Assembly: GCA_963526325.1 (NCBI GenBank)
Contig: CAURNC010000002.1
Location: forward strand, 67,149 to 131,148
DNA from: an uncultured Candidatus Saccharibacteria bacterium
Lineage (GTDB): Bacteria; Patescibacteriota; Saccharimonadia; Saccharimonadales; Saccharimonadaceae
Direction: 5' to 3'
Length of the DNA stretch: 64,000 bases
Below the pieces are notes generated by a model. That model was given only the letters and a program-made list of their open reading frames with translations, was not told where the DNA came from and made no database searches. Position numbers and translations under genes: made by a program. This document shows, in pieces, positions 2,268 through 59,597 of this stretch (positions are counted from its first letter, which is position 1; the number at the start of each line of letters is the position of its first letter).

Positions 2268-4769
2268 ATGACATTTTACGCCACGCCCGCTCACGAAACT
2301 CTGAAAAAATTACGCACAAATGAATATGGGCTAACAGCCAGAGAAGTTAAACGCCGCCAAAAACAGTACGGCATCAACGTTATCAAAATCGAATCCGAGC
2401 CGCTCTGGAAAAAGATCATAGAACCGTTTTTGGATATTTTCATGCTGGTGCTAGGAGTGGCTGCAGCCATCAGTTTGTGGCACGGCGATCACATTGACGC
2501 GGTCATCATTTTGGTAATCATCGCCATCTCAGCAATCATTTTCTACGTCCAGCGGTTTTCGACTGACCGGGTTCTCCGCAGCCTATCCAAACGCAGCGTA
2601 CAAAAGGTTGACGTACTACGCGGCAATCACACGGCTCGCGTTGACGCCTCGCAGCTGGTACCTGGCGACATCATCACTCTGGCTGAAGGCGAGAAAATCC
2701 CCGCAGACATCAGACTCCTCCGAACAGCCAACTTGCGGGTCGACGAATCACAATTGACCGGCGAATCATTACCCATCAGCAAAAAACCGGACGTACTCGA
2801 GGCCCACAAAGAATTGTATGAGCAAACCAACATGTTGTTTCAAGGCTCATTCATCATCAGCGGCACTGGCACTGGCGTCGTGGTTACGACTGGCAACAAT
2901 ACTGAGTTCGGCAACCTTGCCACGCTGTCAAAACGGCAAAATACCCAAAGTCCCGTCCAGCAAAAAATCGATATCTTGATCACCAGAATCATCGCTGTTG
3001 TTGCCGCCGTCAGCGTCGTAGCTTTTGGGCTCAGTCTGCTGCGCGGCATGGACGTTCTGGAGAGCCTGCGCTTTGTCATGGCCCTGGCTGTCAGCGCCGT
3101 TCCCGAGAGTCTACCAATTGCTATATCTGTTGTGTTGGTTCTGGGTATGCGACGCATGGCTGCCAAAAAAGCTTTGGTACATCAGATGCGAGCCATCGAG
3201 ACCATCGGCGTCATCACCACCATCGCCACAGACAAAACTGGCACGCTGACCAAAAACAAATTGACCGTCCAAGAAACCTGGTCGCCTGGCGACACGGCCA
3301 TCATCGACATCATCGCCCGCACCATCAACCGTGGCGACGCCAAAAGCCACGACCCGCTTGATATTGCGCTGGAAGAATTTGTGCGCACACATGGCGTCCA
3401 GGTCAAAAACTCGCCATTTCGTGAACTACCATTTAACCAAGATTTCAGTATGTCCGCTGCGGTGTGGCATCATGGCAAAGATTTTCAGCTGTACCTCAAA
3501 GGCGCGCCTGAGCAGATTTTAGCGGCCTGCAAAGTAACCGCTACTGTTAAAAAACAAGCTCTAGCAGCCCTGGAAGCATTCACTGCCAAGGGGCAGCGAG
3601 TCATCGGTCTGGCGTCCTATACCTCAGCGCACCCAGTTCATGAATTTTACGAATTGAAAGGTGAGAAATTGACCTTCGAGGGCTTTGTGGCAGTCAGCGA
3701 CGTCTTGCGCCCAGAAGCGCCTCGGGCAATTCGCGCTGCCCTAAAAGCCGGCGTGTCCGTACGCATGATCACTGGTGATCATTTTGAGACAGCCTATCAA
3801 ATCGGACATCAACTAGGCATGGTCAAGGACCGTGACGAGGTATTCGACTGCCGCCAAATGAATAAGCTAACAGATGAGCAGCTCGACCCAATCGTCGAAC
3901 GCACCAAAGTCTTTTCGCGCGTCATCCCCGAGCAAAAATACCGCTTGCTGACCATTCTCAAAAAGCATCACATCACCGCCATGACAGGAGACGGCGTCAA
4001 TGATGTGCCAGCGCTCAGCAATGCTCACATTGGCGTGGCCATGGGTTCGGGCTCGCACATTGCGCGTGACGCTGGAGCTATCATTTTGCTGGATGATAAT
4101 TTCAAGACTATCATCGACGCCATGCGCGAAGGGCGAACTATCATCGCCAATGTTCGCCGTATGTTGTTCTACCTACTATCGACCAACACTGGTGAGCTCA
4201 TTACTATGGTTGGTGCACTCCTGATTGGCATCAAAACGCCGCTGGAGCCAGTGCAAATTCTGTGGGTCAACCTGGTCACCGACACCTCGATGGTCATCCC
4301 ACTTGGCTTGGAGCCAACAGAGAAGGGGGTGATGAATCGTCCGCCCGAAAAGCCAGATGCTCCAATTTTGAACCACATGATGGTCTGGCGAATGGTTATC
4401 GTCGCCGGCACTATGTCAGCCATCGCCTTGGCGGTTTACATATTCTTCGAACAACGACAAGGACATGCGTACGCCCAAACGATGGCCTTCATCACGCTGG
4501 TGGTCAGCCAGTGGGCAAATGCGTTCAACGCTCGCTCCGACGACGAGTCGCTCCTGAAGCGCCTGAAAGTCATGAACAAGAGTTTCTACGCCGGCATAAG
4601 CTTATCTATCGTCCTGCAAATTTTAGTCTTCTTTGGACCTCTTGGTGAAATCCTCCACATCGCACACGTCGCCCTCAGTGACATGATCATCATCAGCCTG
4701 ATATCATTCATCATCCCGATTGTCGTCTCTGAATGGCATAAGTATGTTACGAGACAGGGTAAGGGCTAA
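2268..4769 (+). CDS. Cation-transporting P-type ATPase (type II, Ca2+-like)
   Basis: TGES, PESLP, DKTGTLT, KGAPE, TGD, GDGVND motifs. Confidence 0.95.
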   Translation: MTFYATPAHETLKKLRTNEYGLTAREVKRRQKQYGINVIKIESEPLWKKIIEPFLDIFMLVLGVAAAISLWHGDHIDAVIILVIIAISAIIFYVQRFSTDRVLRSLSKRSVQKVDVLRGNHTARVDASQLVPGDIITLAEGEKIPADIRLLRTANLRVDESQLTGESLPISKKPDVLEAHKELYEQTNMLFQGSFIISGTGTGVVVTTGNNTEFGNLATLSKRQNTQSPVQQKIDILITRIIAVVAAVSVVAFGLSLLRGMDVLESLRFVMALAVSAVPESLPIAISVVLVLGMRRMAAKKALVHQMRAIETIGVITTIATDKTGTLTKNKLTVQETWSPGDTAIIDIIARTINRGDAKSHDPLDIALEEFVRTHGVQVKNSPFRELPFNQDFSMSAAVWHHGKDFQLYLKGAPEQILAACKVTATVKKQALAALEAFTAKGQRVIGLASYTSAHPVHEFYELKGEKLTFEGFVAVSDVLRPEAPRAIRAALKAGVSVRMITGDHFETAYQIGHQLGMVKDRDEVFDCRQMNKLTDEQLDPIVERTKVFSRVIPEQKYRLLTILKKHHITAMTGDGVNDVPALSNAHIGVAMGSGSHIARDAGAIILLDDNFKTIIDAMREGRTIIANVRRMLFYLLSTNTGELITMVGALLIGIKTPLEPVQILWVNLVTDTSMVIPLGLEPTEKGVMNRPPEKPDAPILNHMMVWRMVIVAGTMSAIALAVYIFFEQRQGHAYAQTMAFITLVVSQWANAFNARSDDESLLKRLKVMNKSFYAGISLSIVLQILVFFGPLGEILHIAHVALSDMIIISLISFIIPIVVSEWHKYVTRQGKG

Positions 4770-5034
4770 AACAACATCAACTCTATAGCGCTGCATATTC
4801 GCTAGGGCATATTTTTACCCTGAGATATAGCAGTAAGCTTGTCTATACTATGTATTCGGCGACTTGTCTCATGGCTACATCACGCGCTGCGATTAGATAA
4901 GCCCAAGTGGATGGAGTAACTTTGTTGATTTTATCTTTTTCCTTTCTTTCAAAAACTTCATTAGATCTGTAATATCTTTACTATAGACCCTGTAATCATG
5001 TCATAGAATAACAGTGTAATCACAAAAGAGAAAT

Positions 5035-5066
5035 AAAACCGCCCAGCCACTCCAGGCTAGACGGTT
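5035..5066 (-). terminator. Terminator hairpin, probably the displaced original tRNA-Gln terminator
   Basis: Minus strand AACCGTCTAGCC-loop-GGCTGGGCGGTT then TTATTT, 13 nt after a CCAGCCA copy. Confidence 0.55.
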
Positions 5067-5260
5067 AATATGTAAAGCCTGGCTGGCGTAACAATACGAC
5101 AAATGAACCCCTAGCAGTTAGCAAATCACTTTTAGCGGTTAGAGCTTGGATTGATGAACAAAGCAAAATAAATAATTTATTATCAATAAGTAGTAAAGCA
5201 AAACTAAAGCTAAAGCCAGATTGTGGCAAAATATTAAGAATAGGTTATATAATATCATGC

Positions 5261-6247
5261 ATGGGAAGAGACTTATGTTTACACGCTGAAAGTACTAATA
5301 AAAAGAGCTTATATAATCATATAAAATCCTACGGGAATATAACTCCAACATCTCATCTATGGGATTGGCCGACAGGAAGCGAACATCTGCATTGGTTTGA
5401 CAAAGAGGATTTTAAATCAATCACCGGTGTAGAAATAACAATTTTTCCAGAAATAAGAGGAAAAAGGAGATTTTGGTCACTCCATGTGAGAAATACATAC
5501 AACGCTTCATGGCATGACGTAAGTATGATGAACAAAATTTTGACAGATTCAAAGAAGAAATTTGGAGGAACGATTGATGGGGATTATGGGAAAAATAAAG
5601 TCGCTCCTTTATGGGAAGATGATACTTCTCCAATGAGTCGCGGTATTGATTATATAACTAGAAAAACACGCGATAGCATTCTAAGCTTAGGAGTAAGCCT
5701 ACCTCTACCATGGAATAATTTTCAAACAGCGAATGAATCAAAAAGTAGTGATAAAAAAATTGAAGCTTTTTTAGCCTATACAGATCCAACTAGACAGATT
5801 TATATAGGCCTAATTCCAATGCTTGTTGCGATACTTGAATTTTATTTCAAGGAAACATTTAGAGTGCTAGCGAACTATGATGAAGGCATATTGGCAAGAA
5901 TCACACAAACATTATCTGATAATAAAAATTTAGGCACATCAGAAATAATTAACTCTTTCATTAACAATGTAAATTTTCAAAATTTGAAAAATGTTAGGAA
6001 AATATACAAGAGTCGTGCATATTTGGACATCAAAAGCATAATAGAAGAATCAACTAGTATAGAAAATTATAATAAACTTAAGGAATTGATTGAGCTTAGG
6101 CATGACATAGTTCACAGATTAGAGTCTGATTGGGTATTTACCAGGGAAGATTTTTTAGAATTTCATAAAGTATTAAGAGAAAGTCTGTCAAGTATCACTT
6201 GTAATATTATAGCCAAGTACAATCTAAATACAGAAGAGGAATATTAG
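5261..6247 (+). CDS. HEPN-domain protein (putative RNase / defence effector)
   Basis: C-terminal helical domain with ILEFYFK helix, FQN and R-x4-H motif (LRHDIVH); AT-rich. Confidence 0.65.
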   Translation: MGRDLCLHAESTNKKSLYNHIKSYGNITPTSHLWDWPTGSEHLHWFDKEDFKSITGVEITIFPEIRGKRRFWSLHVRNTYNASWHDVSMMNKILTDSKKKFGGTIDGDYGKNKVAPLWEDDTSPMSRGIDYITRKTRDSILSLGVSLPLPWNNFQTANESKSSDKKIEAFLAYTDPTRQIYIGLIPMLVAILEFYFKETFRVLANYDEGILARITQTLSDNKNLGTSEIINSFINNVNFQNLKNVRKIYKSRAYLDIKSIIEESTSIENYNKLKELIELRHDIVHRLESDWVFTREDFLEFHKVLRESLSSITCNIIAKYNLNTEEEY

Positions 6248-7258
6248 CTATAAGTTTTACCAGACCATAGCCAGCACGTATACTTTTTACGAACTAGAAA
6301 CAGCATGCTAGGATTGAGTTGAAATATTCAGAAATCGAAAACAGCCTTGTTTGATTATTCATTAAATTTAATATAAAAGTAAGCCAATGAATATCATGTA
6401 ATCCAAGTTATGCCTCACTCCCATCAAAACTTAGCATTTCATTATTAATAAAGCCACCAAGTCAAATGTGGTAAATTTTAAGATAAAAGACATAATAAAT
6501 ACTAAACAATGATGTACAAAAAATGAGCGATAATCAAGATTCCAAAACAACGATATTCCAACGCAAGAGTCGGCTACCGACACCAGTAATCAAGACACTA
6601 AAATATCTTATGACCCAAACGGCGAAAGATATATCAGAACCACCAAAGAAGAGAGCCCTCTTATAGCAACAAATCATTTATCAGGAAGACCGTAAACGCA
6701 CCACTCAACTAAATAATCGCCGACATTAAAAAACGGCAATTATTTATACCCAACAAGCCAATAAAAACAGTTAGCAAAACAGAGGTAAAGCAAAATAGAA
6801 AAAATGTTAGCCCAACAAATTATTTTTAGTCTTTTTCATTACGAATTGCGGTATTTATATAGCCACACTTCGCCATTGTTTCATCAAAAGTTTTATCCAT
6901 ATATAGCAAATCGCCAATCCATCCAAATAACATTAAATTGGCACTCATGCAACGCAACAGAACACCCTCTGTCTTGCCAATATAAAAATGGTGATCGGGA
7001 AGAAAAAGCTACGCCAAGTTAATATTTTATACGTTTTGCGATCTTTCATAAAATAATTTCCTTTCTTTTATTTTAATGTCTAGAGTGTCATCAATTAAAA
7101 ACGACACCGCAAGACCAACCCACAAAGAGTTTATTGAACTCGTCAATTCTTATCTGGAAACTATACTTTCAACCACCGATATTATTGAAGGATATGATAT
7201 ACAATAAGCTAGTGTTGAACCTCCGAGCTGGCAACAATGCCGTATCTGTTATAAAGCT

Positions 7259-7288
7259 AAACCCGCCATATAATTTGATGGTGGGTTT
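7259..7288 (-). terminator. Terminator downstream of tRNA-Gln
   Basis: AAACCCGCCAT / ATGGTGGGTTT inverted repeat. Confidence 0.6.
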
Positions 7289-7303
7289 AGAGAAAATTCC
7301 ATG

Positions 7304-7378
7304 TGGCTGGGCCGGAGGGATTCGAACCCCCGAATGCCAGGACCAAAACCTGGTGCCTTACCACTTGGCGACGGCCCA
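7304..7378 (-). tRNA. tRNA-Gln(TTG)
   Basis: Cloverleaf TGGGCCG...CGGCCCAGCCA; anticodon arm CCAGG-TTTTGGT-CCTGG; TTCGAAT T loop; encoded CCA. Confidence 0.97.
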
Positions 7379-7480
7379 ATATGAGCAACGCGTGTGAGCG
7401 CAACTACGTGTAACATTGTACCACATCAGGGCAGAGATACCAAGCTTGCCAATCCGCCAACGCCGCCGTATAATCAAACT

Positions 7481-7942
7481 ATGCATAAGCACTATGGTTT
7501 TACAATCGTCGAAGTATTGGTGGTCGTCTTGGTCCTCGGCATCTTGATGACCCTCGGTGGTCTGGCGTGGCGCACCGCTCGAGAAGACGCCATTAACAAT
7601 GAGAGCAAGACTGAATTATTAACCATCCAGAATGCCGTCGAAGAATATTACAGTCAAAATGGAGAATATCCGTGGCCTGCGTCCTGTAGTAAATACAGCT
7701 CAGCAACCAACCGCACATGCGACGCTGGCGAACTCAACCCGCTGTTAGTACCAAAATATCTCAAAGAATTACCGACAGACTGGCGCGGTAAGCACTACGA
7801 ATACACCGTCAACAAAAGCCCCGACAATCGCTATGGGCTACTGATGTACCGAGCTAACGGCACCAAATGTCGCGTCGGAAAAGGCATTCTGGCAATGTGG
7901 TGGAACACGCCAGCGCCAGCGGCTGAAAATTGCGATTTCTAA
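7481..7942 (+). CDS. Type IV pilin / pseudopilin (GspG-like)
   Basis: Prepilin motif G|FTIVEVLVVVLVLGIL; YYSQNGEYP; start moved to ATG 7481 after TATAAT. Confidence 0.9.
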   Translation: MHKHYGFTIVEVLVVVLVLGILMTLGGLAWRTAREDAINNESKTELLTIQNAVEEYYSQNGEYPWPASCSKYSSATNRTCDAGELNPLLVPKYLKELPTDWRGKHYEYTVNKSPDNRYGLLMYRANGTKCRVGKGILAMWWNTPAPAAENCDF

Positions 7943-8005
7943 TCATACCTTGCCCTAGCGTTTGGTCATTTTCCAAATGCGCCTGGTTTGGGGTACAATA
8001 GGGCA

Positions 8006-12186: not shown

Positions 12187-15100
12187 ATGGATTTTTCTAC
12201 ACGCTACGCCAGCCTCAACGCCAATCAACGTTCTGCTGTCGACAAAATTCACGGACCGTTGTTGGTTATCGCAGGTCCTGGCACTGGCAAAACTGAGCTC
12301 TTGAGCATGCGAGCTGCTCACATATTGCGCCAAACTGACACCTTGCCAAGCAATATCTTATGCTTAACGTTTACTGATTCGGGTGCGGTGAACATGCGCC
12401 AGCGCTTGCAGCAAATCATCGGCGAAGATGCCTACAAGGTCGCCATTCATACGTTTCATAGCTTTGGCTCAGAAATTATTAACACCAACCGACAATATTT
12501 CTTCCGCGGCGCAGATCGGCAGCCGACTGACGAACTGACACAGCAACAAATCCTGCAAGAAATTTTCGAAGGTATGGATTGGGATAATCCGCTCAACGCC
12601 AAAAATAATGATGAATTTATCTACCTCAAAGAAACGCTCAAAACCATTTCCGAGTTCAAAAGCAACGGCCTGGCCTCTGAAGAAATACAACATATTTTGG
12701 ACGATGTGGAGCAAACAATCACAGAAATTTCTGAGGCCATCACGCAGCTTTTCCAAACCACCATCAAAAAATCAACTATCCCGGCGTTTGCCAATGTTGC
12801 AGAAATAGCAGCAGCTATCACCCCGCAGCCTCTGCCAGCAGCCATCACACCGTACGCCAATGCACTAGCACTCAGCATGGCCAATGCCGCACAAGAAGCC
12901 TTGGAAAATGACAGCACAAAACCCATCACCGCCTGGAAAAATGCGTGGTGCAAGAAGAATGCAGCAGGGGAGTTTGTCTTAAAGGACAGCGAGTCAATCG
13001 CCAGGCTGCGTGCCGTCACTCACGTGTACGACCAGTACCGCAGTGCGCTGACACAGCGCGGATTGTTTGACTATGACGACATGATTTTAAATGTGCTAGA
13101 TGCCTGCAAACACCAGCCAGATCTGCGCGCCAACCTCCAAGAGCAATACCAGTTCATCATGGTTGACGAATTTCAGGACACCAACCTAGCACAACTACAA
13201 CTATTATTTAATCTGACTGGCGACGAGCCTGAGCCAAACATCATGGCAGTCGGCGACGACGACCAGGCCATCTTCAGCTTCCAAGGCGCCAATGTCGGCA
13301 ATATCCAGCGCTTCCGTCAGCACTATCATGACCCAGCCGTCATCGTCCTGACCGACAACTACCGTTCGGCAGAGCAAATCCTCACCACCGCCCGCAGCGT
13401 CATCACCCAAGGTAGCGACCGCCTGGAAAACACCATCTCCGACCTATCCAAACAACTCACCGCCCACGCTTCATCATCAGGCGCCACCGTGAACCTTAGT
13501 CGTTTCATGACGCCGCTGGATGAAAGGGCGGGCATCGCTAAGCAAATTGCACATCTCATCACCTCAGGCACGCCGCCCGAAGACATCGCCGTCATATCCC
13601 GCCGGCATCATGAACTGATTGAATTATTACCTCACCTCTATCAAAATAACATCAGCGTCAACTATGAGCATCATGACGATATCCTGGAACTAGACAGCAT
13701 CAAAGCGCTGGAGCTCGTAGCCCGCATCGTCATCTCACTTCACAATAACGACCTAACCAACGCCAACAGCTTACTGCCAGAGCTACTGGCGCATCCAGCA
13801 TTTGACTTCGCCGCCACTGACATCTGGAAATTAAGCCTAGCTGCCTGGCGCAACCGACAGTTCTGGCTGGAAGCCATGCTCACCCAAACAACGTTCGAAC
13901 CATTGGCTCAGTGGCTACTAGAACAAGCCAAAAATGTTCCCAACCTCACGCTCGAAGAGCACATCGACGAGCTACTAGGGCTCACTGAAACCGCCACCAA
14001 CCGCGCCCTCTATACCTACTACTTTTCACCAGGAAAATTACAGTCAGACCCGGAAGCCTACCTCACCACCCTAGAAGCGCTGCGCACCTTGCGCCAGAAA
14101 TTACGTGACCACTACACCGAAGCAACGCCAACCTTGACGCAGCTTCTCCAGTTCATCGATCTCCACCATCTGACTAAGACTCGACTCACCAGCATCAGGC
14201 CAGCCGCCGAGCACAAATCAGGCTCGATCAATCTCATGACCGCCCACAAATCAAAGGGCTTGGAATTTCCGCACGTATTCATCATCGGCGCAACTGACAA
14301 CATATGGGGCGAGAAAGTCCGTGCGCGCAGTCGGCTCATCCGCTATCCAGCTAACCTACAGCTCCAGCCGGCAGGCAACAACTACGACGAGCGCCTACGT
14401 CTATTCTTCGTCGCCATGACTCGCGCCAAGCAAACCCTACACATCAGTCACAGCCTCACAGACACTGGTGGCAAAGACAATTTGATCGCCAGTTTCCTAA
14501 GCTCTCTACAGCTAGATACGTCAACCATTGATACCTCCGAGACTGCTGACGCAACCGAGTCACTGCTCACCGACTGGCGCGCCAGACTGACTGAACCACA
14601 CGGCACAACCCTACAGGAAGTCTTGGCACCAATCTTACAGCACTACAAACTGTCCGCCACCCATCTAAACAATTTCCTCGACGTCTCACATGGCGGACCT
14701 CAAGGATTTTTGTTAAATAATTTGCTTCATTTTCCGCAAGCCAAAAGCCCATCCGCTGCCTATGGAACCGCTGTTCACACCTGCCTACAACAACTGCACG
14801 ATAGGTTCGTCGCGGACGGAAACTTGCCGCCACGCCCAGAGATTATGCGTTTGTATACTCAAACCTTAGCAGCGCAACATCTGTCACCAGATGACACCAA
14901 ACTGTTCACCGAAAAAGGCCAGTCAGTCTTGACCGCTTTTCTGGACGCCAAACAGAGCAGCTTCACCCAGCAACAGCTGGCTGAACTTAATTTTGCCAAT
15001 CAAAATTCCTTCGTCGACCAAGCGCAGCTGACAGGAAAGCTAGACCTGGTCGATATAGACAAAACCGCGAAGACTATCTACGTCACCGACTACAAGACCG

Positions 15101-15450
15101 GTAAGCCATCGCACTCCTGGAAGGAAACATCTGACTATGAAAAAATCAAGCTCCACAAATACCGCCAGCAACTGATGTTCTATCAGTTACTAGTCAAAAC
15201 ATCGCGTGATTATGGCAATTTCAGCTTCACCGGCGCCCGCCTACAGTTCGTCGAGCCGGACATGAAAACTGGCGATATCCTCAGCCTGGAAGATACGTTC
15301 TCCGAGGAGGAATTAGCTGAATTTGCGCGGCTCATCGGCGTCGTCTGGCGAAAAATCACCACTCTGGACCTGCCAGACATCTCTGGGTATTCCGCAGACT
15401 ATAAAGGTATGGTGCAGTTCGAAAAGGACTTATTAACAGAGGAAAGGTAA
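12187..15450 (+). CDS. UvrD/PcrA-family helicase with C-terminal PD-(D/E)XK nuclease
   Basis: AGPGTGKT, VDEFQD, GDDDQAIF, NYRS, TAHKSKGLEF, VAMTRAK; C-terminal GKLDLVD...DYKTG. Confidence 0.95.
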   Translation: MDFSTRYASLNANQRSAVDKIHGPLLVIAGPGTGKTELLSMRAAHILRQTDTLPSNILCLTFTDSGAVNMRQRLQQIIGEDAYKVAIHTFHSFGSEIINTNRQYFFRGADRQPTDELTQQQILQEIFEGMDWDNPLNAKNNDEFIYLKETLKTISEFKSNGLASEEIQHILDDVEQTITEISEAITQLFQTTIKKSTIPAFANVAEIAAAITPQPLPAAITPYANALALSMANAAQEALENDSTKPITAWKNAWCKKNAAGEFVLKDSESIARLRAVTHVYDQYRSALTQRGLFDYDDMILNVLDACKHQPDLRANLQEQYQFIMVDEFQDTNLAQLQLLFNLTGDEPEPNIMAVGDDDQAIFSFQGANVGNIQRFRQHYHDPAVIVLTDNYRSAEQILTTARSVITQGSDRLENTISDLSKQLTAHASSSGATVNLSRFMTPLDERAGIAKQIAHLITSGTPPEDIAVISRRHHELIELLPHLYQNNISVNYEHHDDILELDSIKALELVARIVISLHNNDLTNANSLLPELLAHPAFDFAATDIWKLSLAAWRNRQFWLEAMLTQTTFEPLAQWLLEQAKNVPNLTLEEHIDELLGLTETATNRALYTYYFSPGKLQSDPEAYLTTLEALRTLRQKLRDHYTEATPTLTQLLQFIDLHHLTKTRLTSIRPAAEHKSGSINLMTAHKSKGLEFPHVFIIGATDNIWGEKVRARSRLIRYPANLQLQPAGNNYDERLRLFFVAMTRAKQTLHISHSLTDTGGKDNLIASFLSSLQLDTSTIDTSETADATESLLTDWRARLTEPHGTTLQEVLAPILQHYKLSATHLNNFLDVSHGGPQGFLLNNLLHFPQAKSPSAAYGTAVHTCLQQLHDRFVADGNLPPRPEIMRLYTQTLAAQHLSPDDTKLFTEKGQSVLTAFLDAKQSSFTQQQLAELNFANQNSFVDQAQLTGKLDLVDIDKTAKTIYVTDYKTGKPSHSWKETSDYEKIKLHKYRQQLMFYQLLVKTSRDYGNFSFTGARLQFVEPDMKTGDILSLEDTFSEEELAEFARLIGVVWRKITTLDLPDISGYSADYKGMVQFEKDLLTEER

Positions 15451-15467
15451 TTATTTTCCATATATTG

Positions 15468-15496
15468 TTGCTATTTTTTACAGTTCGTGTTATGAT
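15468..15496 (+). promoter_or_regulatory. sigma70 promoter of the structured RNA
   Basis: TTGCTA-17 nt-TATGAT with extended -10 TG. Confidence 0.7.
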
Positions 15497-15928
15497 ATTC
15501 ATTAGCTTTTGTTCGTGGAGCTAACCCTGGTGAGATATCGCAAATGATATCAAACCCTGGTCATGCTTCGCACAAAAGCATGGGCTGAAAGGGGGTTAGC
15601 TCTTTTTCTATCGCCGCAACTCGCGGCAGAGAGGGGGTGAGACCCTTGGTGTTTTTCTCTTATCCCGTAGCATCAATGTATAGCTACGGAGATTATACCA
15701 CTGCAATGACATGCAGTGGTAGAAACCACCATGTTGCGTATAGGCGTCCTGGAGATGCCGGTACGCAGTTTAAATGCCCATACTGCGGGCATTTCATGGT
15801 GTAACACCACACAAATACGACAGTCGGGGTTTGTGCGACCCCGAAACCACTGACCTCCGCGGTCAGTAAAGGGCGTCTGTCCGCCCCTGGGGTGATTCGC
15901 CCAGCTGGTAGCCCAGAAAAGAATCACA

Positions 15929-16016
15929 GGACATATAGCTCTAATCGGCAGAGCGCCCGCGTCGACAACGGTGTCGACGCAATGGGAGGCTGCGGGTTCG
16001 AGTCCCGCTGTGTCCG
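15929..16016 (+). other. tRNA-like domain 1 (extended anticodon arm, no anticodon loop)
   Basis: Acceptor GGACATA/TGTGTCC; D arm GCTC/GAGC; T arm GCGGG-TTCGAGT-CCCGC; anticodon replaced by GCGTCGACA/TGTCGACGC hairpin. Confidence 0.75.
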
Positions 16017-16218
16017 CTTCGCGGTTGCATGCGCAATCACACGACCTCATCACCCGTGTGAAGCCGTATGTAAGCGAAAAAACTTGGGTGTTTCCACCAC
16101 TCCGCCCGAGTTTCATTGACTTCTCAGCTTTGTTTTGTGGTCCAATGGCGTACGACAAACCAAAGCGGGTGTATACCGCTACATCGAGAAGACCAATGTT
16201 TTCAACACAGAATGGTCA

Positions 16219-16288
16219 GGGTGTGCCAGGTAGGGAGACAGGACATTCGAAGTCCACCGTCTCGCGGGTTCGACTCCCGTCACATCCA
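16219..16288 (+). other. tRNA-like domain 2 (no D stem, G3:U70, discriminator A)
   Basis: Acceptor GGGTGTG/CACATCC; T arm GCGGG-TTCGACT-CCCGT; GAGAC..GTCTC and GGAC-ATTCGAA-GTCC arm. Confidence 0.7.
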
Positions 16289-16402
16289 CTGAGATGGCAC
16301 AATGGCGTGTCATCTCTCCCCCCGGGTTCGCGAGATTCACTCGTGGCAGTTTTTCTCACCGTCGAGATCAACTCCGAGCAGAACCGCTTGAGCCCACCAA
16401 CG

Positions 16403-16438
16403 CCCCTCATTCTCAAAGGCGAGAGTGAGGGGTTTTCT
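16403..16438 (+). terminator. Rho-independent terminator
   Basis: CCCCTCATTCTC / GAGAGTGAGGGG then TTTTCT. Confidence 0.8.
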
Positions 16439-16462
16439 CCTTTGTATGGTAAAATAACAGAG

Positions 16463-17539
16463 ATGACATCATTTTGGGACAATCTACCGCAGCCATTTTT
16501 CATCTTGGCACCCATGGAAGCCGTCACTGACGTGGTATTTCGCCATGTCGTGAAAAGGGCGGGCGCGCCCGACGTGTTTTTCACCGAATTTGCCAATGCG
16601 ACCGGCTGGGTACATGCTGGTGACAAAGCCATCGCTGGGCGACTCGTCAAAACCGACGATGAACATCCACTAGTCGCCCAAATCTGGGGCGGTGAGCCAG
16701 GCGACATGGAGCAATTTGCCGCTCACTGCATAAAGCTCGGCTTTGACGGCATTGATATCAACATGGGCTGTCCCGCCAAATCCGCCATCAAAAGCGGGGG
16801 AGCAGCGCTGATTCGCCGACCCGACGTAGCGGTTGCTGCCATCGCCGCTGCTAAAACTGCTGGGCTGCCAGTTAGTGTGAAGACTCGGCTGGGCTATTCA
16901 CGCGTTGACGAGTGGAAAGAATGGCTGAGCACGCTACTGGCGCAGGACCTCACCAACCTGACCATCCACCTCCGCACCAAAAAGGAGATGAGCAAAGTTC
17001 CAGCGCACTACGAGCTTATCGACGACATCGTCAAACTACGCGATGAAATCGCTCCGCAAACTCTCTTGACTATCAACGGCGATATCCGCGACCGCGCCCA
17101 TGGTGAAGAATTAGCTAGAGCTCACCCAGGCCTCAACGGCATCATGATCGGGCGGGGCATTTTCAGCGATCCGTTTTGCTTTAGGAGGGCAGTTAAACTA
17201 TCCTCAGTCGAGGAAGCTGTGACGGGCGCGTCAAGCCCCGTCAGCCGAACGCCACGGGCTGGCGAAGCCACCCGTAAAGAGTCCTCCGAGACAGAGGACA
17301 GTTCAACTATTCATCACAAGTCTGAACTAATTGCCTTACTATACTACCACCTTGACCTCTTTGACCACTACCAATCAACCCTCGGCCGCCCCTACGAAAC
17401 CCTCAAACGCTTCTTCAAAATCTACATCCGCGACTTCGACGGCGCCAAGGAACTGCGCGACCAGCTGATGCACACTAAGACGACCGACGAGGTGCGATCA
17501 ATACTTGCACACAACGATCGTCCACATTATACTTATTGA
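16463..17539 (+). CDS. dus: tRNA-dihydrouridine synthase (Dus)
   Basis: LAPMEAVTD, DINMGCP, SVKTRLG, NGDI, GIMIGRG; true start 16463; carries a ~40 aa insertion. Confidence 0.95.
   Translation: MTSFWDNLPQPFFILAPMEAVTDVVFRHVVKRAGAPDVFFTEFANATGWVHAGDKAIAGRLVKTDDEHPLVAQIWGGEPGDMEQFAAHCIKLGFDGIDINMGCPAKSAIKSGGAALIRRPDVAVAAIAAAKTAGLPVSVKTRLGYSRVDEWKEWLSTLLAQDLTNLTIHLRTKKEMSKVPAHYELIDDIVKLRDEIAPQTLLTINGDIRDRAHGEELARAHPGLNGIMIGRGIFSDPFCFRRAVKLSSVEEAVTGASSPVSRTPRAGEATRKESSETEDSSTIHHKSELIALLYYHLDLFDHYQSTLGRPYETLKRFFKIYIRDFDGAKELRDQLMHTKTTDEVRSILAHNDRPHYTY
17191..17308. repeat. Palindromic in-frame insertion element, copy 1
   Basis: Terminal IR AGTTAAACTATCCTCAGTC / GACAGAGGACAGTTCAACT; two inner hairpins; core TCAGCCGAACGC shared with 28966-28977. 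Confidence 0.75.
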
Positions 17540-17540
17540 C

Positions 17541-18020
17541 ATGACAACAAAAAAACAAAAACTACAAAAACAACAGACTATAGACAGATGGATCGTCATA
17601 GCATTATGGGCAAGTGCTATCTGGTTCTCGCTCGCACGTGGATTCATTACTGGCGTCGGCGGTTGGGTACTAGCACTACTTGGCCCGTGGGCGCTTATCG
17701 TTAGCTGTATCTGTCTTGCAATCATCTCCCGACAAGTGAAAAAACGCCATGCATCAAAAGACCATCTCACCACAATAGTACGTGTTTCCTTTATCGTCAT
17801 GTCAATCTCATTATTTATCTGCGGCCTTGCAATGCCTGATTTTAGCGACATAGAGACCTTTTCAACATTATCCGTGTATACAAATAACGCTATTTCATTT
17901 GAAACATCAAAAGCTATCGCCATTATCTCAGGGTTTGTAGTAGTTCTGTCTCTATTCGTGGCTGTTACTTTTGGTATCGCTGAAGACAGAGAAGAGACGA
18001 CGGAAGACGTCGCTATTTAG
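17541..18020 (+). CDS. Hypothetical integral membrane protein (~4 TM)
   Basis: Hydrophobic segments; TATACT 7 nt before ATG 17541. Confidence 0.75.
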   Translation: MTTKKQKLQKQQTIDRWIVIALWASAIWFSLARGFITGVGGWVLALLGPWALIVSCICLAIISRQVKKRHASKDHLTTIVRVSFIVMSISLFICGLAMPDFSDIETFSTLSVYTNNAISFETSKAIAIISGFVVVLSLFVAVTFGIAEDREETTEDVAI

Positions 18021-49994: not shown

Positions 49995-50012
49995 TAACTA
50001 TATGAGCCCAAC

Positions 50013-50107
50013 AAAAAACGGGCCTACCGCCCGAATCGTTGTAGAAACATTTTAGCTAATGCTTTATTTTAACCTGTAGTGTTATATTGAGGTACCGAAA
50101 CGGTACA
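50013..50107 (-). ncRNA. tracrRNA
   Basis: Anti-repeat 50067-50101 matches the CRISPR repeat; minus-strand promoter TTTACA-17-TATAAT (50142-50114); terminator CGGGC/GCCCG + T6. Confidence 0.9.
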
Positions 50108-50185
50108 ATAAAAATTATAGCCAATTAAAACAACGTTGTAAACCCTAAAAATAAGCGATATACTTAAAATAATTAAAGGGGATTT

Positions 50186-53100
50186 ATGATGAAACAACCG
50201 TATTCTATTGGATTAGATATTGGCACAAACAGCGTTGGCTGGGCAGTTATAAATGAAGGTTTTGATCTGCGCAAATACAAGCACCAAAACATGTGGGGCG
50301 CCCATTTGTTTGATGAGGCGCAAAAAGCAGCCACTCGGCGGTCATTTCGCTCATCGCGCCGGCGGCTTGCCAGACGAAAGCGCCGCGTCACACTGCTCCA
50401 GCAGATATTTAACGATGAAATTCAGAAAGTCGACCCGCATTTCTACCTCCGTTTATCCGAATCAATGCTCCATGTTGGCGACAAAAGTTCTACACTAGAA
50501 TTAGACGCCAACATTTTATTCGCCGACCGCTCTTTCACCGACAAATCATATAGAGAGAAATATCCAACAATTTATCATTTGCGCAGCGATCTATTTCACA
50601 ACTCTGCAAAACAAGATATTCGATTAGTCTACCTAGCGCTTCATCACCTTATAAAGTACCGCGGCAATTTCCTAATTGAAGGCGGAGTCGATAATGTAAT
50701 CTCTTCGTTTGATAGTCAAAGCTTGCAGACTTTCATGGAATTTATCGGCGCTGACGATTCGACAGCTCAAAAGATTAAGGCGACTTTGCTTGACCGTTCT
50801 CTATCGCGTAGTGCCAGAAAATCAGACATCATCAATCTACTACAGCCATCTCCTGACAACAAGAGGGCTGTCAGCGAAGCCGTCGGTGCAGCTATCGGCC
50901 TAAAATGGAACGCCAATAAACTATTCGAGGACGACTCTCTCGAAGTAAAAGGGGAGTTCTCGAATAAAAATTACGAAGAGCAACGAGATGAAATTGCGGC
51001 TGCAATCGGCGACGATCGCTATGAACTCGTAGAAACTTTAGAATCAGTCTACCAATGGACAATTTTCAGTCAATTCATCAGGAAAGATAGTTGTCTGTCC
51101 GACATTATGATTGAAAAATACGATGCCTATCGTCAAGATTTATCCGACCTTAAAGCGCTATTTCACGAATCTCTACCTAAAAAATACAAGACGTTTTTTC
51201 ATGGCGACGCCGCCGAATTTGAGCTATACAACAACCACAAACGAAACCTTGATGATTTATATAAATCTATCAAAAAACAACTCGGCGAAATTGCCAAGGA
51301 CAACCCGCGCTACCAGCGATTTGAGAAGCGGGCTGAGCTAGAGGAATTTCTTTCTAGGCAACGCATTCGTGATAACGGTACCATCCCGCATCAGATTCAC
51401 CAGTACGAACTCGAGAAAATTATCGACAATCAAGCACAATACTATCCGTTCCTAGCTCAAAATCGCAACAAAATCATCAGCATTTTTACATTCAAGCTAC
51501 CGTATTACATCGGGCCGCTCAAAACTGGCGGTAATTTTGCGTGGTCAGTCAAAAAGAAAGATGGCGTGATTTATCCGTGGAATTTCGACGAGATGATAGA
51601 CGATGAAGCTTCCGCTGAGAAATTCATTGACCGAATGCGCAACAACTGCACCTACCTACCAGACGAAGAAGTTCTTCCTAAAAACTCGCTGCTTTATCAA
51701 GAGTACGAAGTTCGCAACGAATTAAAGAACGTAACCATCAACGGCGAAAGACTGAGTTCTGACGTCCAGAACCGCATCGTTGACGAGTTATTCACCAAAG
51801 AGCCTTCAGTCACTTACAAAAAGTTAATTAAATATCTCTATGACAACCAGATATATAACACTGACTCTCTCATTATTTCTGGAACAGCCAAAGAGAAATC
51901 GTTTGCTTCATCGCGTAAGTCTTACCTTGATTTTACAAACAAAATCGGTATTGAGATTACGCCAAAAACTCAAAAAGCAATCGAAGAGGTCATCAAGTGG
52001 ATTACCTTGTTTGAAGATAAAAAGATTCTAGCCAAAAAATTACAGAAGTACAGTGATATCTTTGACAATAATCAGCTTCGCGCTATTTTGAAGCTAAATT
52101 ATAGCGGCTGGGGACGACTATCTCACAAGCTGCTTGACGGCATCACTGCGCACACGCCTTACGGAGAGCTGACCGTCATAAAGACGATGCGTAGCTCTAA
52201 AGATAACTTTATGCAGATCATCCAAAGCGATCGATACGAGTTCAAAAAGATTATTGACAATATCTTGTCGGCAGACCAGCGCACAGACATAGCCTACGAC
52301 GACATTAAAAAACTCGCCGGATCGCCGGGCATCAAACGCGCTCTGTGGCGCAGCGTTAGAATTGTTGACGAGATTGTCGACACAATCGGCTACGAACCAA
52401 AGCTAATCAGCATTGAGATGGCCCGCAATGAAGACGAGAAAGTTAGAACCAAAAGCCGATACGGCCAACTGGAAAAAATGTATAAGGATCTTTATGGCAA
52501 AGAATATACTAAATCTGATATAAAATCGCAATTGGCTAAATACAAAGACAAACTCGATAAGAAAAAGTATTATCTGTATTTCCTACAGAACGGCAAATGC
52601 GCTTATACGGGCGACCCGCTCGACATCGAAAACGATCTTAAAGACTGCGAAATTGACCATATTTTACCGCGCTCGTTAACAAAAGATGACTCACTAGACA
52701 ACACTGTCCTAGTGCTGCGCAAAGAAAACCAGCGAAAACTTGATGATTATCCTATTGCACCCGACATCCAAAATCACATGAGACCGATCTGGACGTCTCT
52801 GAAGAATGCTAAACTTATGTCGCAGCTTAAATTTCAACGCCTAACAAGTCAAAAGCAACTGTCTGAAGACCGCGTGGCTGGATTCGTCAATCGCCAACTC
52901 GTTGAGACACGACAGATCACCAAACATCTCGCCAGAATGCTGACCGAAAAATATCATGATTCATCGACAGAAGTGTTTACTATCCGCGCCGGTATGAGCT
53001 CTGAATATCGCCGCATTCATGACTTGCCGAAATGCCGCGAAGTCAATGACCTACACCATGCCAAAGATGCTTATTTGGCTGCAGTTCTAGCTCAATACGT

Positions 53101-54193
53101 AAAAATTCGCTATCCAAAACTAGATAACGCATTTATCTACGGTGAATACATGAAGTTCAAATCTAAAGAACAGACCGACACGGATCGTAGCAGCTTTATC
53201 CTCGCGTCAATGAACTATGACTTTACTAATACAAATACAGGTGAAATTATCTGGCAGAGTAAAACCGCACACGATGTCATCGACCGAACGATGAAATACA
53301 ATGACTGCCTGATTACAAAGAAAACTGAGATTGGCGACAATCAATTCTACGACCAGACTATTTACGGTAAAAATTCTGGCGCCACCATGATCACCAGAAA
53401 AGCGAACCTACCGGTCGATAAATACGGTGGCTATTCAGGGAGAAAAGCAGCCTATTTTATGGCTATAAGATATCTTAAACAGGTGCGTAACAAGGATGTT
53501 TTTGTAAACGAGATTATCAGCGTGCCAACTCAAATTTATACACTAGAAAAGACCAAGCCAGGCTCAATCAATGAGCATCTCCACAACAACTATAAGCAAG
53601 CTACAGTTCTTCTGTCCAAAATACCAATTAATCAAAAAATTGAATATGACGGCAATGAGCAATTCATCGTTGGCAGTAAAGAAGTTACTAATGCCAAACA
53701 GCTGAAATTACCTTACGACGTTGAATACGCCGTGGCAGTCGCTCTCAAGCAGGGAATTCCGCAAATCACGATCACAGAAGAACAGGCTGCCGACGACAAT
53801 AAACTACAACGCAAGCGCAATAGACAAATAGAAAGAAGAGATAGAGTTATTAGCGGAATAGAGAGGTTCTGGGAGATTTATACTGATAAGCTCACTAATC
53901 AGTACCAGCAATTTGGGAGCGTCGTCGAAAAAGCGAAGGTCACCAATAATGAATACCGGGCAATGCCTGTAGAAGATAAGATTAAGGCTATAGGACTAGT
54001 CTTGACTGCTACACATGCTGGCTCAGGGCGTGTAGATATGAAAAAGAGCTTTCCAAAACTAGGACTACCAGATGATTTTGGGAGAATGAAAGGTAAAAAG
54101 CTAGATCCGGCTAAACTAACCTTCGTTTACGAATCTATCACCGGACTGCACCGCCGAAAATTAGACGGAAAAACATTAGAGCAGGGCCGTTAG
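50186..54193 (+). CDS. cas9: Type II-A CRISPR nuclease Cas9
   Basis: RuvC-I GLDIGTNSVGWA, Arg-rich bridge helix, RuvC-II IEMAR, HNH DHILPRS..DDSLDN, RuvC-III HHAKDAY. Confidence 0.98.
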   Translation: MMKQPYSIGLDIGTNSVGWAVINEGFDLRKYKHQNMWGAHLFDEAQKAATRRSFRSSRRRLARRKRRVTLLQQIFNDEIQKVDPHFYLRLSESMLHVGDKSSTLELDANILFADRSFTDKSYREKYPTIYHLRSDLFHNSAKQDIRLVYLALHHLIKYRGNFLIEGGVDNVISSFDSQSLQTFMEFIGADDSTAQKIKATLLDRSLSRSARKSDIINLLQPSPDNKRAVSEAVGAAIGLKWNANKLFEDDSLEVKGEFSNKNYEEQRDEIAAAIGDDRYELVETLESVYQWTIFSQFIRKDSCLSDIMIEKYDAYRQDLSDLKALFHESLPKKYKTFFHGDAAEFELYNNHKRNLDDLYKSIKKQLGEIAKDNPRYQRFEKRAELEEFLSRQRIRDNGTIPHQIHQYELEKIIDNQAQYYPFLAQNRNKIISIFTFKLPYYIGPLKTGGNFAWSVKKKDGVIYPWNFDEMIDDEASAEKFIDRMRNNCTYLPDEEVLPKNSLLYQEYEVRNELKNVTINGERLSSDVQNRIVDELFTKEPSVTYKKLIKYLYDNQIYNTDSLIISGTAKEKSFASSRKSYLDFTNKIGIEITPKTQKAIEEVIKWITLFEDKKILAKKLQKYSDIFDNNQLRAILKLNYSGWGRLSHKLLDGITAHTPYGELTVIKTMRSSKDNFMQIIQSDRYEFKKIIDNILSADQRTDIAYDDIKKLAGSPGIKRALWRSVRIVDEIVDTIGYEPKLISIEMARNEDEKVRTKSRYGQLEKMYKDLYGKEYTKSDIKSQLAKYKDKLDKKKYYLYFLQNGKCAYTGDPLDIENDLKDCEIDHILPRSLTKDDSLDNTVLVLRKENQRKLDDYPIAPDIQNHMRPIWTSLKNAKLMSQLKFQRLTSQKQLSEDRVAGFVNRQLVETRQITKHLARMLTEKYHDSSTEVFTIRAGMSSEYRRIHDLPKCREVNDLHHAKDAYLAAVLAQYVKIRYPKLDNAFIYGEYMKFKSKEQTDTDRSSFILASMNYDFTNTNTGEIIWQSKTAHDVIDRTMKYNDCLITKKTEIGDNQFYDQTIYGKNSGATMITRKANLPVDKYGGYSGRKAAYFMAIRYLKQVRNKDVFVNEIISVPTQIYTLEKTKPGSINEHLHNNYKQATVLLSKIPINQKIEYDGNEQFIVGSKEVTNAKQLKLPYDVEYAVAVALKQGIPQITITEEQAADDNKLQRKRNRQIERRDRVISGIERFWEIYTDKLTNQYQQFGSVVEKAKVTNNEYRAMPVEDKIKAIGLVLTATHAGSGRVDMKKSFPKLGLPDDFGRMKGKKLDPAKLTFVYESITGLHRRKLDGKTLEQGR

Positions 54194-54194
54194 C

Positions 54195-55073
54195 ATGTCT
54201 TGGCGAACTGTCATCGTCAAGAATCGTTGCAAGCTAAGCTACAAAAACGACTACATGCTCATCATTAGCGATGGCAACGAAAAAGCGCTCCACATCAGCG
54301 AAATCGGCACTTTAATCATTGAAAATACTGCTGTCAATATCACCGCATATCTACTTTGTGAGCTGGCTCGCTACAAGGTAAAAATAATATTTTGCGACCA
54401 CCAACGCAATCCATACAGCGAGATAATACCGTATTACGGCGCGCATAATGCCAGCAAGCAAATGCGCCGCCAAAGCCAATGGCCTCAGATTACCAAAGAT
54501 AAAATCTGGCAGAGAATCGTTGCTCAAAAAATTATCAAGCAAGCTCAGGTAGTCTATAGAGAGACCGCCAATCAAACCTCCTGCGAAATACTTATGAATT
54601 TTGCCGCATCAGTATTACCCGGAGACACTACCAATCGTGAAGCGCATGCTGCGAAACTATACTTCAAAGAGTTGTTTGGTCCGCAATTTTCACGCGACAG
54701 CTCCAGCGACATAAACGCAGCGCTTAACTATGGTTATGCAATTCTCCTTTCAGCTTTCAACAGGGAAATTACTTCAGCTGGCTATTCAACAACTATGGGT
54801 GTTAACCACTGCAATGAATACAACCCTTTTAATCTCACCTGCGACCTAATGGAGTCATGCCGTCCTATCGTTGACCGTGAAGTGTATAAGTGTCGAAGTT
54901 TCGCATTTGACGACTTCTTCAAGAGTCGCCTCATTGATATTCTCAACCACAAAGTCATTATTCTTGGTAAAGAACAGTTCCTATCAAACGCGATCAACAT
55001 CTACGTAAAGTTATTTTTTAGAGCAATGGAAGAGGGCAGCGACAAAAATCTGCCCGAATACGAACTAATATAA
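54195..55073 (+). CDS. cas1: Cas1 (type II)
   Basis: MSWRTV, GDTTNREAHAA, NAALNYGYAIL, FNLTCDLME. Confidence 0.97.
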   Translation: MSWRTVIVKNRCKLSYKNDYMLIISDGNEKALHISEIGTLIIENTAVNITAYLLCELARYKVKIIFCDHQRNPYSEIIPYYGAHNASKQMRRQSQWPQITKDKIWQRIVAQKIIKQAQVVYRETANQTSCEILMNFAASVLPGDTTNREAHAAKLYFKELFGPQFSRDSSSDINAALNYGYAILLSAFNREITSAGYSTTMGVNHCNEYNPFNLTCDLMESCRPIVDREVYKCRSFAFDDFFKSRLIDILNHKVIILGKEQFLSNAINIYVKLFFRAMEEGSDKNLPEYELI

Positions 55074-55075
55074 GT

Positions 55076-55396
55076 ATGAAGGTAAGGTATATGAGAATGA
55101 TATTATTTTTTGACTTACCAATGGTAAGTGCTCGCGAACGCAAAATATATGCCACATTCCGCAAGCAACTCACCCAAGAAGGGTTTGTCATGATGCAACA
55201 ATCAGTCTATAGTAAACTAGTCCTTAATTCCACGAACGAAAAATTAACCCACGACAGACTCAAAAAAATTATACCCGACAATGGTATCATCCAACTATTA
55301 ACGATAACTGAGCGGCAATTCGCCTCAATGGAATACTTAGCAGGGGAGTATGAGGAATTATCAATTCAAACTACCGATAGGACAGTTGTTTTATGA
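55076..55396 (+). CDS. cas2: Cas2
   Basis: MRMILFFDLP, GFVMMQQSVY, ITERQF. Confidence 0.97.
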   Translation: MKVRYMRMILFFDLPMVSARERKIYATFRKQLTQEGFVMMQQSVYSKLVLNSTNEKLTHDRLKKIIPDNGIIQLLTITERQFASMEYLAGEYEELSIQTTDRTVVL

Positions 55397-56082
55397 AAAT
55401 CAACATTTCAGGATTCGATAATACGCTATCAATATCAGATGACGGTGGCATCGCGACCTTGGCTGTTCGTAATGACTTATTTTTCAGAAGCATTGTTGAA
55501 GATATACTTGATACATACACTAAAAGGGAAGAGAATAACCGCACTGTTGTTTACGACAGTGATCACACTCCACTGAATTTCACAAAAGACACTCTGGTTA
55601 TCACGGATATATATTCCTACGATCTAGCCAATCGAACTATCACAGCAGCCCTGTATAAAAACATCCATGACAATAGCGACATCGACATGGCCAAACTAGC
55701 ACAAATAGAAGCAGACATTTTGGATGTTCTTAGCACTATAAATACCAATTCCTCACAAAGTATAAACTATCAAACAGAGATATCTATCAATGACATTATG
55801 AAGATGACGCATGTAGAGCTGGAGGCGAATACAGGAAATAACTACATTGACAAGCTTTATGGTATTATAGATTCAGCTCAGCAATTATTATCAAAACGTT
55901 TAGTGATTTTGATAAACCAGCGCCAATTATTGTCGCATTGCGAGCTGCAGGCTCTTTTACAATATGTACAAAACAATCATTTTTCAGTACTTTTTATTGA
56001 GAAAAACTGTAAAGATAAGTTGAACGAGGAGAATATTCTCGTTATTGATGACGATTTGTATGATTTTAGTACCAATTCATAA
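55393..56082 (+). CDS. csn2: Csn2
   Basis: Position after cas2, 229 aa, LVILIN, VLFIE, VIDDDL C-terminus. Confidence 0.88.
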   Translation: MKINISGFDNTLSISDDGGIATLAVRNDLFFRSIVEDILDTYTKREENNRTVVYDSDHTPLNFTKDTLVITDIYSYDLANRTITAALYKNIHDNSDIDMAKLAQIEADILDVLSTINTNSSQSINYQTEISINDIMKMTHVELEANTGNNYIDKLYGIIDSAQQLLSKRLVILINQRQLLSHCELQALLQYVQNNHFSVLFIEKNCKDKLNEENILVIDDDLYDFSTNS

Positions 56083-56135
56083 TAACAACAGGGTAAGCGC
56101 TATCACGTTCACCCCTGTAAAACTTCACACTTGAG

Positions 56136-57411: not shown

Positions 57412-57675
57412 CTAAAGCCATTTAAAGTAGGCAACACACTGAACGTGGTTACCTACTTTAACGATTCGTCATCTGGCCGCACCAATCCTGCATATAATAT
57501 GTCGAGGCTTGATGATACGTCCGAGACGGGGCAATTACAGTCCACGAATCCTAATGATAGTATAGCAAACAACAGACGACCAAGGATATATATCAAGCTG
57601 TCAACGCTCAAATTATCGAAACTGACCTAGAAATCTTAACAGAGAGCAGAGTGCCTTAAATATACTACCTCCAGC

Positions 57676-59568: not shown

Positions 59569-59597
59569 ATACCCCTCTATCTGTAAAAGATATGTTA

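Follow-up and report, generated by a model that had tools for sequence, protein, structure and literature searches.

The window, a stretch of 64,000 nucleotides, belongs to the genome of an uncultured Candidatus Saccharibacteria bacterium (G000; 717 kb, 92% complete). On its forward strand, between the genes for an AddA-like helicase-nuclease and for Dus, lie in this order a promoter, a leader, a swappable ORF, a block of five hairpins, a slot for tRNA-like folds, a further hairpin, a 3′ block and a terminator, and then dus. The promoter-like site (15468-15496) combines TTGCTA, a distance of 17 nt and TATGAT, with TG before the −10, and is conserved in relatives. Between the upstream gene and dus the + strand has no second such site, and none was found between the small ORF and the tRNA-like element. 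At the other end, the intrinsic terminator (16402-16433, + strand) consists of a 13-bp stem, an AAAGGC loop and a U-tail, and the ATG of dus, whose Dus domain was found, is at 16463. One promoter-like site and one strong terminator bound the unit, and structured RNAs flank the slot on both sides. We infer from this arrangement a single transcription unit, restricted to Candidatus Nanosynbacter and oral TM7 taxa close to it, whose modules would be co-transcribed.

The structured leader (15518-15603, + strand) is built on a 10-bp outer stem, GAGCTAACCC/GGGTTAGCTC, with two hairpins inside the stem and a U-run downstream; a terminator-like site lies within the leader at 15582-15602. In relatives the leader takes this long form or a shorter one with a hairpin. 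From its modelled structure, it might act as an attenuator or riboswitch-like element, or represent a small RNA. The small ORF (15646-15804, + strand, 52 amino acids) has the SD sequence GAGGGGGTGA upstream and a Zn-ribbon-like C..CPYC motif. Its site behaves as a swappable cassette: in relatives it holds at least four unrelated families of 50-58 amino acids, its content can change even where the RNA part of two genomes is 99% identical, and in a contig from another sample (X2) positions 15649-15821 are exactly exchanged for 181 other letters. Neither the small ORF of the locus nor those of its relatives match a Pfam family above threshold, and the protein database holds only two relatives of the window's ORF, both unnamed.

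The five-hairpin block (15812-15928, + strand) lies directly 5′ of the slot and ends in the invariant sequence GAAAAGAATCA. Compensatory changes affect 17 of its 32 pairs, a number that none of 500 shuffles reaches, and the block is detected in 81 of 131 genomes of the genus, being undetectable in the other 50. Its covariance model, run in Infernal with stricter filters, matched none of 150 genomes that represent 120 other genera in the order, and no Rfam family matched positions 15812-15928. The loop GATTC of hairpin 4 can pair with GAATC of the invariant tail (93.7% paired, no double changes), a possible pseudoknot as far as the aligned sequences indicate.

Downstream of the first tRNA-like element, a spacer (16017-16218, + strand), present only in the clade that shares the architecture of G000 (21 loci), leads to a second one. 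Next comes a hairpin of 10 bp with an AATGGC loop (16291-16316, + strand), a module that in some relatives directly follows the slot element, and then the conserved 3′ block (16324-16395, + strand). The latter is composed of a closing stem GGGTTC...GAGCCC, an inner CGAG/CTCG hairpin, a variable hairpin and the conserved GAGCAGAACCGCTTGAG, and 4 of its 23 pairs show compensatory changes. In relatives the closing stem reads GGGCTC/GAGCCC or GGACTC/GAGTCC and the inner hairpin is rebuilt, while GAGCAGAACCGCTTGAG is invariant. No Rfam family matched the 3′ block, and a search for its pattern among 185,579 species genomes gave 47 record matches, all 47 in Saccharibacteria. A loop-loop pairing between the rod tip of the first element and the 3′ block hairpin, noticed by eye, was dropped because it is not kept in relatives.

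The three hairpins of the genome with an AANGRY hexaloop and the longest stems (8, 10 and 13 bp) all fall within 480 nt of this locus, at 15959-15980, 16291-16316 and 16402-16433, the last of them being the terminator. As a genome-wide signal the loop was discarded, with 44 occurrences observed and 34-58 in shuffles; only the local clustering stands out.

Fold, decoding and charging of the tRNA-like elements

The element at 15929-16016 (+ strand), here called type 1, is defined by a cloverleaf fold, a match to the Rfam tRNA model and its homologs. The acceptor stem has 7 bp (GGACATA, 15929-15935, with TGTGTCC, 16009-16015) and is followed by the D arm, GCTC-TAATCGGCA-GAGC (15938-15954). Where an anticodon arm is expected, a basal stem (CCC, 15956-15958, with GGG, 15984-15986) carries a rod, a perfect 9-bp hairpin of GCGTCGACA (15959-15967) and TGTCGACGC (15972-15980) around the loop ACGG (15968-15971), and the bulge AAT (15981-15983) completes the 3′ side. 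An equally valid description of the rod tip is 8 bp capped by an AACGGU hexaloop. The variable region AGGCT, the T arm GCGGG-TTCGAGT-CCCGC (15992-16008) and the discriminator G16016 complete the element; the next letters are CTT, and CCA is not encoded. The arms claimed by the original prediction, with a CCC/GGG stem and a hairpin as anticodon arm, no 7-nt loop and no CCA, are thus borne out letter by letter.

The Rfam tRNA model (RF00005) matches 15929-16016 over its full length with 43.6 bits (gathering score 29), placing 25 nt within the CCC/GGG stem in lieu of 11 model positions; a long type-1 variant reaches 47.6 bits. The minimum free energy fold retains acceptor and rod (z = −3.63) and none of 200 shuffles is as stable. 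ARAGORN, one of the checks suggested at the outset, does call a tRNA here, but the label that it gives, tRNA-Ser(CGA), is forced: three of five anticodon-stem pairs form, two of six positions in the variable arm are mismatched, and the corresponding cloverleaf has a folding energy of −28.0 kcal/mol versus −40.7 for the rod cloverleaf. The intron mode of the program returns the same call, and among close orthologs the anticodon alternates between Ser(cga) and Val(gac). Applied to 74 slots in related loci, ARAGORN gave no call in 52, the forced Ser(cga) in 14, impossible anticodons of 2 or 4 nt in seven and a Phe(aaa) with C33 in one, a canonical anticodon loop being found in none of the 74. As modelled, the element cannot read a codon, since its anticodon arm is a closed rod of 12-15 bp.

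An intron-containing tRNA was also considered and rejected: excision of the 22-nt hairpin gives a loop of 2-3 nt and no normal anticodon stem-loop. The related proposal of an excisable mini-insert fails in the same way, as removal of the hairpin does not leave a 7-nt loop and the hairpin is present in all 20 distinct type-1 sequences; none of the contigs from other samples (four runs) skips it. Nor could a parent tRNA be assigned, no tRNA of G000 being close to the element outside the anticodon arm.

Charging appears equally precluded. All 37 genuine tRNAs of G000 encode CCA, and among the 39 ARAGORN tRNA calls of this genome only the two tRNA-like elements are without it. The domain of the CCA-adding enzyme (PF01743) was not found in G000 (717 kb, 92% complete), nor in 39 of the 41 genus genomes searched with a completeness floor of 95%; the remaining two gave marginal matches of 17-23 bits in ORFs of about 845 amino acids. 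The same search was positive in 10 of 10 bacterial control genomes. Because CCA is not encoded and the lineage has no detectable CCA-adding enzyme, the element is very probably not aminoacylatable, in so far as gene content can tell.

Element 2 (16219-16288, + strand) starts about 200 nt downstream of the type-1 element. It has the acceptor GGGTGTG/CACATCC with G3.U70 and A73, which we take to be the alanine identity set, and a T arm, and is devoid of D stem and CCA; its middle is a helix GAGAC/GTCTC around GGAC-ATTCGAA-GTCC. ARAGORN reports it as a 71-nt 'tRNA-Arg(tcg)'. On the tmRNA model it scores 31 bits (gathering score 47), the best match to that model in the genome. Neither element 2 nor the genus-specific locus of which both elements are modules figured in the original prediction. 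Both ARAGORN labels, tRNA-Ser(CGA) and tRNA-Arg(TCG), are wrong and would distort the tRNA inventories of these genomes.

The slot in related loci

The slot could be anchored in 74 related loci, and in 70 of them it contains an acceptor stem (at least 6 of 7 pairs) with a T arm. Its content is diverse: among 45 distinct elements the acceptor occurs in 16 variants and the T stem in many, with both sides of the stem changing, and across designs the acceptor and T stems covary. Damaged elements occur in four loci (L015, L078, L093, L098); therefore, the constraint is not absolute. The middle of the slot elements follows at least five designs, mostly closed rods. Type 1 occupies 31 of the 74 loci with 20 distinct sequences. 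In other designs the D stem is absent or reduced to a short D hairpin, with rods of 9-13 bp, and one design, to which element 2 belongs, is characterized by G3.U70, A73 and a small 7-nt loop; in other relatives it is the sole occupant of the slot. The Rfam tRNA model is passed by type 1 and the G070 element alone. Designs 2 and 5 match the tmRNA model weakly, at 19-22 bits (element 2 and design 5 together span 19-37 bits), and no Rfam model matched designs 3 and 4.

Within type 1, pairing is kept in 98.5% of cells, falling to 19-49% when the partners are slid. The rod is paired at 97.8% (4 of 180 cells unpaired), with changes that are mostly wobble-compatible. The search for covariation in homologs, another of the suggested checks, showed the rod conserved and a double change in only one of the 26 type-1 pairs, no better than in shuffles. 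The support for the rod is therefore conservation and wobble-tolerant changes, there being no covariation within type 1. In the 21 loci with the architecture of G000, divergence amounts to 0.035 at paired positions, 0.108 at unpaired positions and 0.122 (mean pairwise value) in the adjoining spacer; hence the helices change at a rate about 3.5 times lower than that of the spacer. Since paired positions diverge less than both unpaired positions and spacer, this sequence comparison speaks for purifying selection on the helices of the type-1 element. The same figures uphold the original prediction in its view that the element is not a product of random decay. Likewise, G19, G20 and the T loop vary little or not at all across the 20 distinct type-1 sequences, in keeping with its proposal of an elbow preserved while decoding is lost. 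Its caveat, that homologs might carry a normal anticodon loop and leave this copy a lone degenerate allele, does not apply, as 31 of 74 loci share the rod and a canonical anticodon loop is absent from every slot element.

Beyond the helices, 44 of the 45 distinct elements continue after the acceptor stem with the three bases R-C-Y, a trailer that persists across six of about seven unrelated downstream modules. The base at N−1 is A in 58 of 70 elements. A scan of G000 for minihelices returned 41 matches, of which 36 are ARAGORN calls and the other five look like chance; the only non-canonical minihelices of the genome are the two elements of this locus.

Elements may be arrayed, two of them in the clade of G000 and three in G070. 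In the latter (L094, reverse strand 499-899), three tRNA-type folds stand in tandem in the slot. The first is a cloverleaf that scores 65 bits on the tRNA model, has a Pro-like acceptor (C1-G72) and the loop CCAAAAG, and encodes CCA; a G3.U70 element comes next, and the last fold reaches 43 bits on the tRNA-Sec model, below 47. Outside the genus, the addA-dus gap of a sister genus (G194; L162, 843-920) shows a CCA-less tRNA-like element adjoining small ORFs, with an 8-nt 'anticodon' loop, an ARAGORN anticodon of 4 nt (tacg) and 49 bits on the Rfam tRNA model. The corresponding gap of G276 has a Cys-rich small ORF and gave no tRNA-like call.

Proposed RNase P punctuation and its alternatives

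Taking into account that: (i) the parts of a tRNA read by RNase P are the ones conserved; (ii) RNase Z was not found, and (iii) substrates of RNase P other than tRNA are known, we tentatively propose that the element is a functional, non-decoding tRNA-like module serving as recognition and cleavage signal for RNase P, a reading that we favour while giving it somewhat less than an even chance. In the model, RNase P would cut between 15928 and 15929 and so part the mRNA of the small protein, together with the hairpin domain at its 3′ end, from a further RNA downstream that starts with the tRNA-like fold. A second cut, at 16218/16219, would come from element 2. Co-transcription, cleavage and the roles of the products are what we infer from the layout of the locus. 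Among sequencing runs recorded as RNA, none containing the locus was found, and the contigs of the four other runs show no RNA ends. The substrate features present, at the level of sequence only, are a 7-bp acceptor on a T arm, a single-stranded 5′ leader and an RCC-type trailer. The parts apparently kept by selection, namely acceptor, T arm, elbow and R-C-Y trailer, are by sequence those that RNase P reads in a tRNA. The RCC of a substrate trailer contacts RNase P RNA, and the R-C-Y bases found here would fit such a contact. According to PMC11143913 (section 11), the non-tRNA substrates of bacterial RNase P include pre-tmRNA, viral tRNA-like structures, intergenic RNAs and mRNAs.

The composition of the genome agrees with one half of the original prediction, which had spoken of an RNase P/Z processing signal. 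The RNase P half has become the best-supported reading, whereas the RNase Z half is not supported, no RNase Z having been found in G000 (92% complete), the one genome searched. RnpA, the RNase P protein, and SmpB are present. Of 31 genus genomes, 25 have an RNase P RNA (254-272 bits) and 24 a tmRNA (67-100 bits), the two lying about 3 kb from each other and away from this locus. The G000 assembly contains no tRNA-Ala, tRNA-Ile(GAU), RNase P RNA or tmRNA; since relatives have RNase P RNA and tmRNA, the absent RNAs most likely sit in unassembled stretches. The idea that the 1-kb non-coding stretch is itself a divergent RNase P RNA or tmRNA arose because neither was detected in G000 despite the presence of SmpB and RnpA, and was abandoned when relatives were seen to carry normal ones at another locus.

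Several points weigh against RNase P. Covariation is lacking within type 1, four of 74 loci hold a damaged element, and 50 of 131 genus genomes gave no sign of the five-hairpin block. E. coli RNase P favours U at N−1, and the predominance of A at that position in the slot elements would count against the proposal. Moreover, a minihelix suffices for RNase P, so the conservation of the D arm and of the closed rod in type 1 exceeds what the model needs. Finally, diversifying selection could be the reason for so many designs.

These last observations would favour a fold that is not cut and acts as a tRNA mimic: it would scaffold, soak up or divert a protein that recognizes the acceptor, T arm or elbow, such as a T-loop modification enzyme or a toxin attacking tRNA acceptor ends, the designs then reflecting an arms race. 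We consider this possible but rather unlikely. It would explain why the whole elbow and the D arm are conserved in type 1 beyond the needs of a minihelix substrate, and why at least five interchangeable designs exist, sometimes arrayed; the free assortment of ORF cassettes and tRNA-like designs resembles that of fast-evolving conflict loci, and the clustered long-stemmed AANGRY hairpins hint at a shared ligand. Nevertheless, the analysis yielded no candidate for the binding protein, the small ORFs belong to no known family, and no defence or toxin gene adjoins the locus, its neighbours being the AddA-like helicase-nuclease and Dus. One version of the mimic, the decoy for anticodon nucleases put forward in the original prediction, is made unlikely by the same feature that abolishes decoding, there being no anticodon loop available for cutting. 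A role in cassette exchange was considered by analogy, given that integrating elements use tRNA genes as attachment sites: the tRNA-like element would be a landmark at the border of exchanged cassettes. Module borders do lie exactly at the acceptor 3′ end, the discriminator changes with the downstream module, the ORF cassette differs between genomes 99% identical in the RNA part and is replaced in the other-sample contig (15649-15821), and sister genera also have small ORFs in the addA-dus gap. However, the locus has no integrase or transposase, the conserved flanking blocks are enough for homologous exchange, and the purifying selection extends to all helices, including the 5′ half and the D arm, for which an attachment site has no need. 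The sole match in a phage collection was a chance one. Such a landmark seems to us improbable.

Two further explanations were weighed. A decaying pseudo-tRNA, functionless and carried along by conserved neighbours, would account for the damaged copies in four of 74 loci, for the lack of compensatory covariation inside type 1 and for a parent tRNA that is not identifiable; we regard it as very doubtful in view of helices whose rate of change is about 3.5-fold below that of the adjoining spacer, acceptor and T stems that covary across designs, a slot filled in 70 of 74 loci, and a rod that keeps 97.8% of its pairing with mostly wobble-compatible changes. Least credible of all is a true tRNA-Ser(CGA) whose variable arm is long, or a tRNA that an excisable mini-insert interrupts, although the Ser(cga) call, a length of 88 nt that fits class II, and an Rfam tRNA score exceeding the gathering score would be expected of it. 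In folding energy the Ser(CGA) form falls 12.7 kcal/mol short of the rod form, with two of five anticodon-stem pairs broken, and the called anticodon is not conserved. The D arm is of class I, unlike those of the four tRNA-Ser of G000, and contig C1 already carries a normal tRNA-Ser(CGA). To this are added the lack of CCA, against 37 of 37 genuine tRNAs that have it, and the hairpin, whose removal restores no 7-nt loop and which every copy and contig retains.

Known systems and significance

Non-decoding tRNA-like folds are known in tmRNA, in plant viruses and in a few eukaryotic long non-coding RNAs. Among the last, in MALAT1 (mascRNA) and MEN-beta, the acceptor/T-arm part is read by RNase P, which cuts the transcript. 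The type-1 element shares with these RNAs (RF01684) the position of a non-decoding tRNA-like fold inside a longer transcript, here a putative one, and, by analogy, plausibly works like such processing signals. The mascRNA is eukaryotic, however, with RNase Z and a CCA-adding enzyme also acting on it, and the RF01684 model covers only the 3′ half of the type-1 element with 16.6 bits (gathering score 42.5). The tRNA-like domain of tmRNA (RF00023) is similar in having acceptor and T arm with a long helix that replaces the anticodon arm. Element 2 and design 5 also share G3.U70 and A73 with tmRNA, whereas type 1 has A3-U70 and a real D stem, and the tmRNA model recovers within it only a 17-nt T-arm fragment of 14.5 bits. 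In addition, and unlike tmRNA, the elements of the locus are without tag reading frame, pseudoknots or CCA.

The order of modules, an mRNA followed by a hairpin/pseudoknot domain and then by a tRNA-like fold, recalls the 3′ tRNA-like structures of plant RNA viruses. Viral tRNA-like structures end in CCA and are aminoacylated, while the element described here is internal, CCA-less and located on a bacterial chromosome. PMC11143913 lists viral tRNA-like structures among RNase P substrates; it also describes the processing of bacterial polycistronic and intergenic RNAs by RNase P, an endonuclease acting on non-tRNA transcripts as would be the case for the cleavage proposed here. The difference from the E. 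coli RNase P sites, which are not conserved full cloverleaf modules, is that here a dedicated tRNA-like fold is maintained in several designs.

A conserved bacterial chromosomal family of such folds with several interchangeable designs is not in Rfam, and no description of one was found, among the matches listed, in the literature on Saccharibacteria tRNA-like RNA, TM7x non-coding RNA or Nanosynbacter tRNA. Saccharibacteria are ultrasmall epibionts with very few RNA-processing enzymes. Because the true tRNAs of this genus encode CCA and neither a CCA-adding enzyme nor, in G000, RNase Z was found, the locus offers a clean natural case of what the tRNA shape does once translation is excluded. 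If RNase P cutting proves true, tRNA punctuation would be a processing device for an mRNA and a non-coding RNA in a minimal bacterium. A wider conjecture, which we think unlikely, is that of a genus-specific modular RNA system in which interchangeable tRNA-like modules go together with swappable small zinc-ribbon-type proteins and two conserved structured RNA domains. The tRNA-like modules would then do the work of a conflict or regulatory device, for example as sponges for factors that target acceptor ends or by heading small RNAs of a new class that RNase P sets free. Such a device, if true, would operate in an organism that gave up CCA addition altogether.

A phage origin of the region was also considered. 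Positions 14000-18000 gave no megablast match to phage records, and the single pattern match in IMG/VR was a chance one with unrelated flanks. In the window at large, the G+C content drops to 0.34-0.42 at 4001-8000 and 50001-64000, against about 0.50 in the rest; these two stretches may be foreign or differently constrained DNA.
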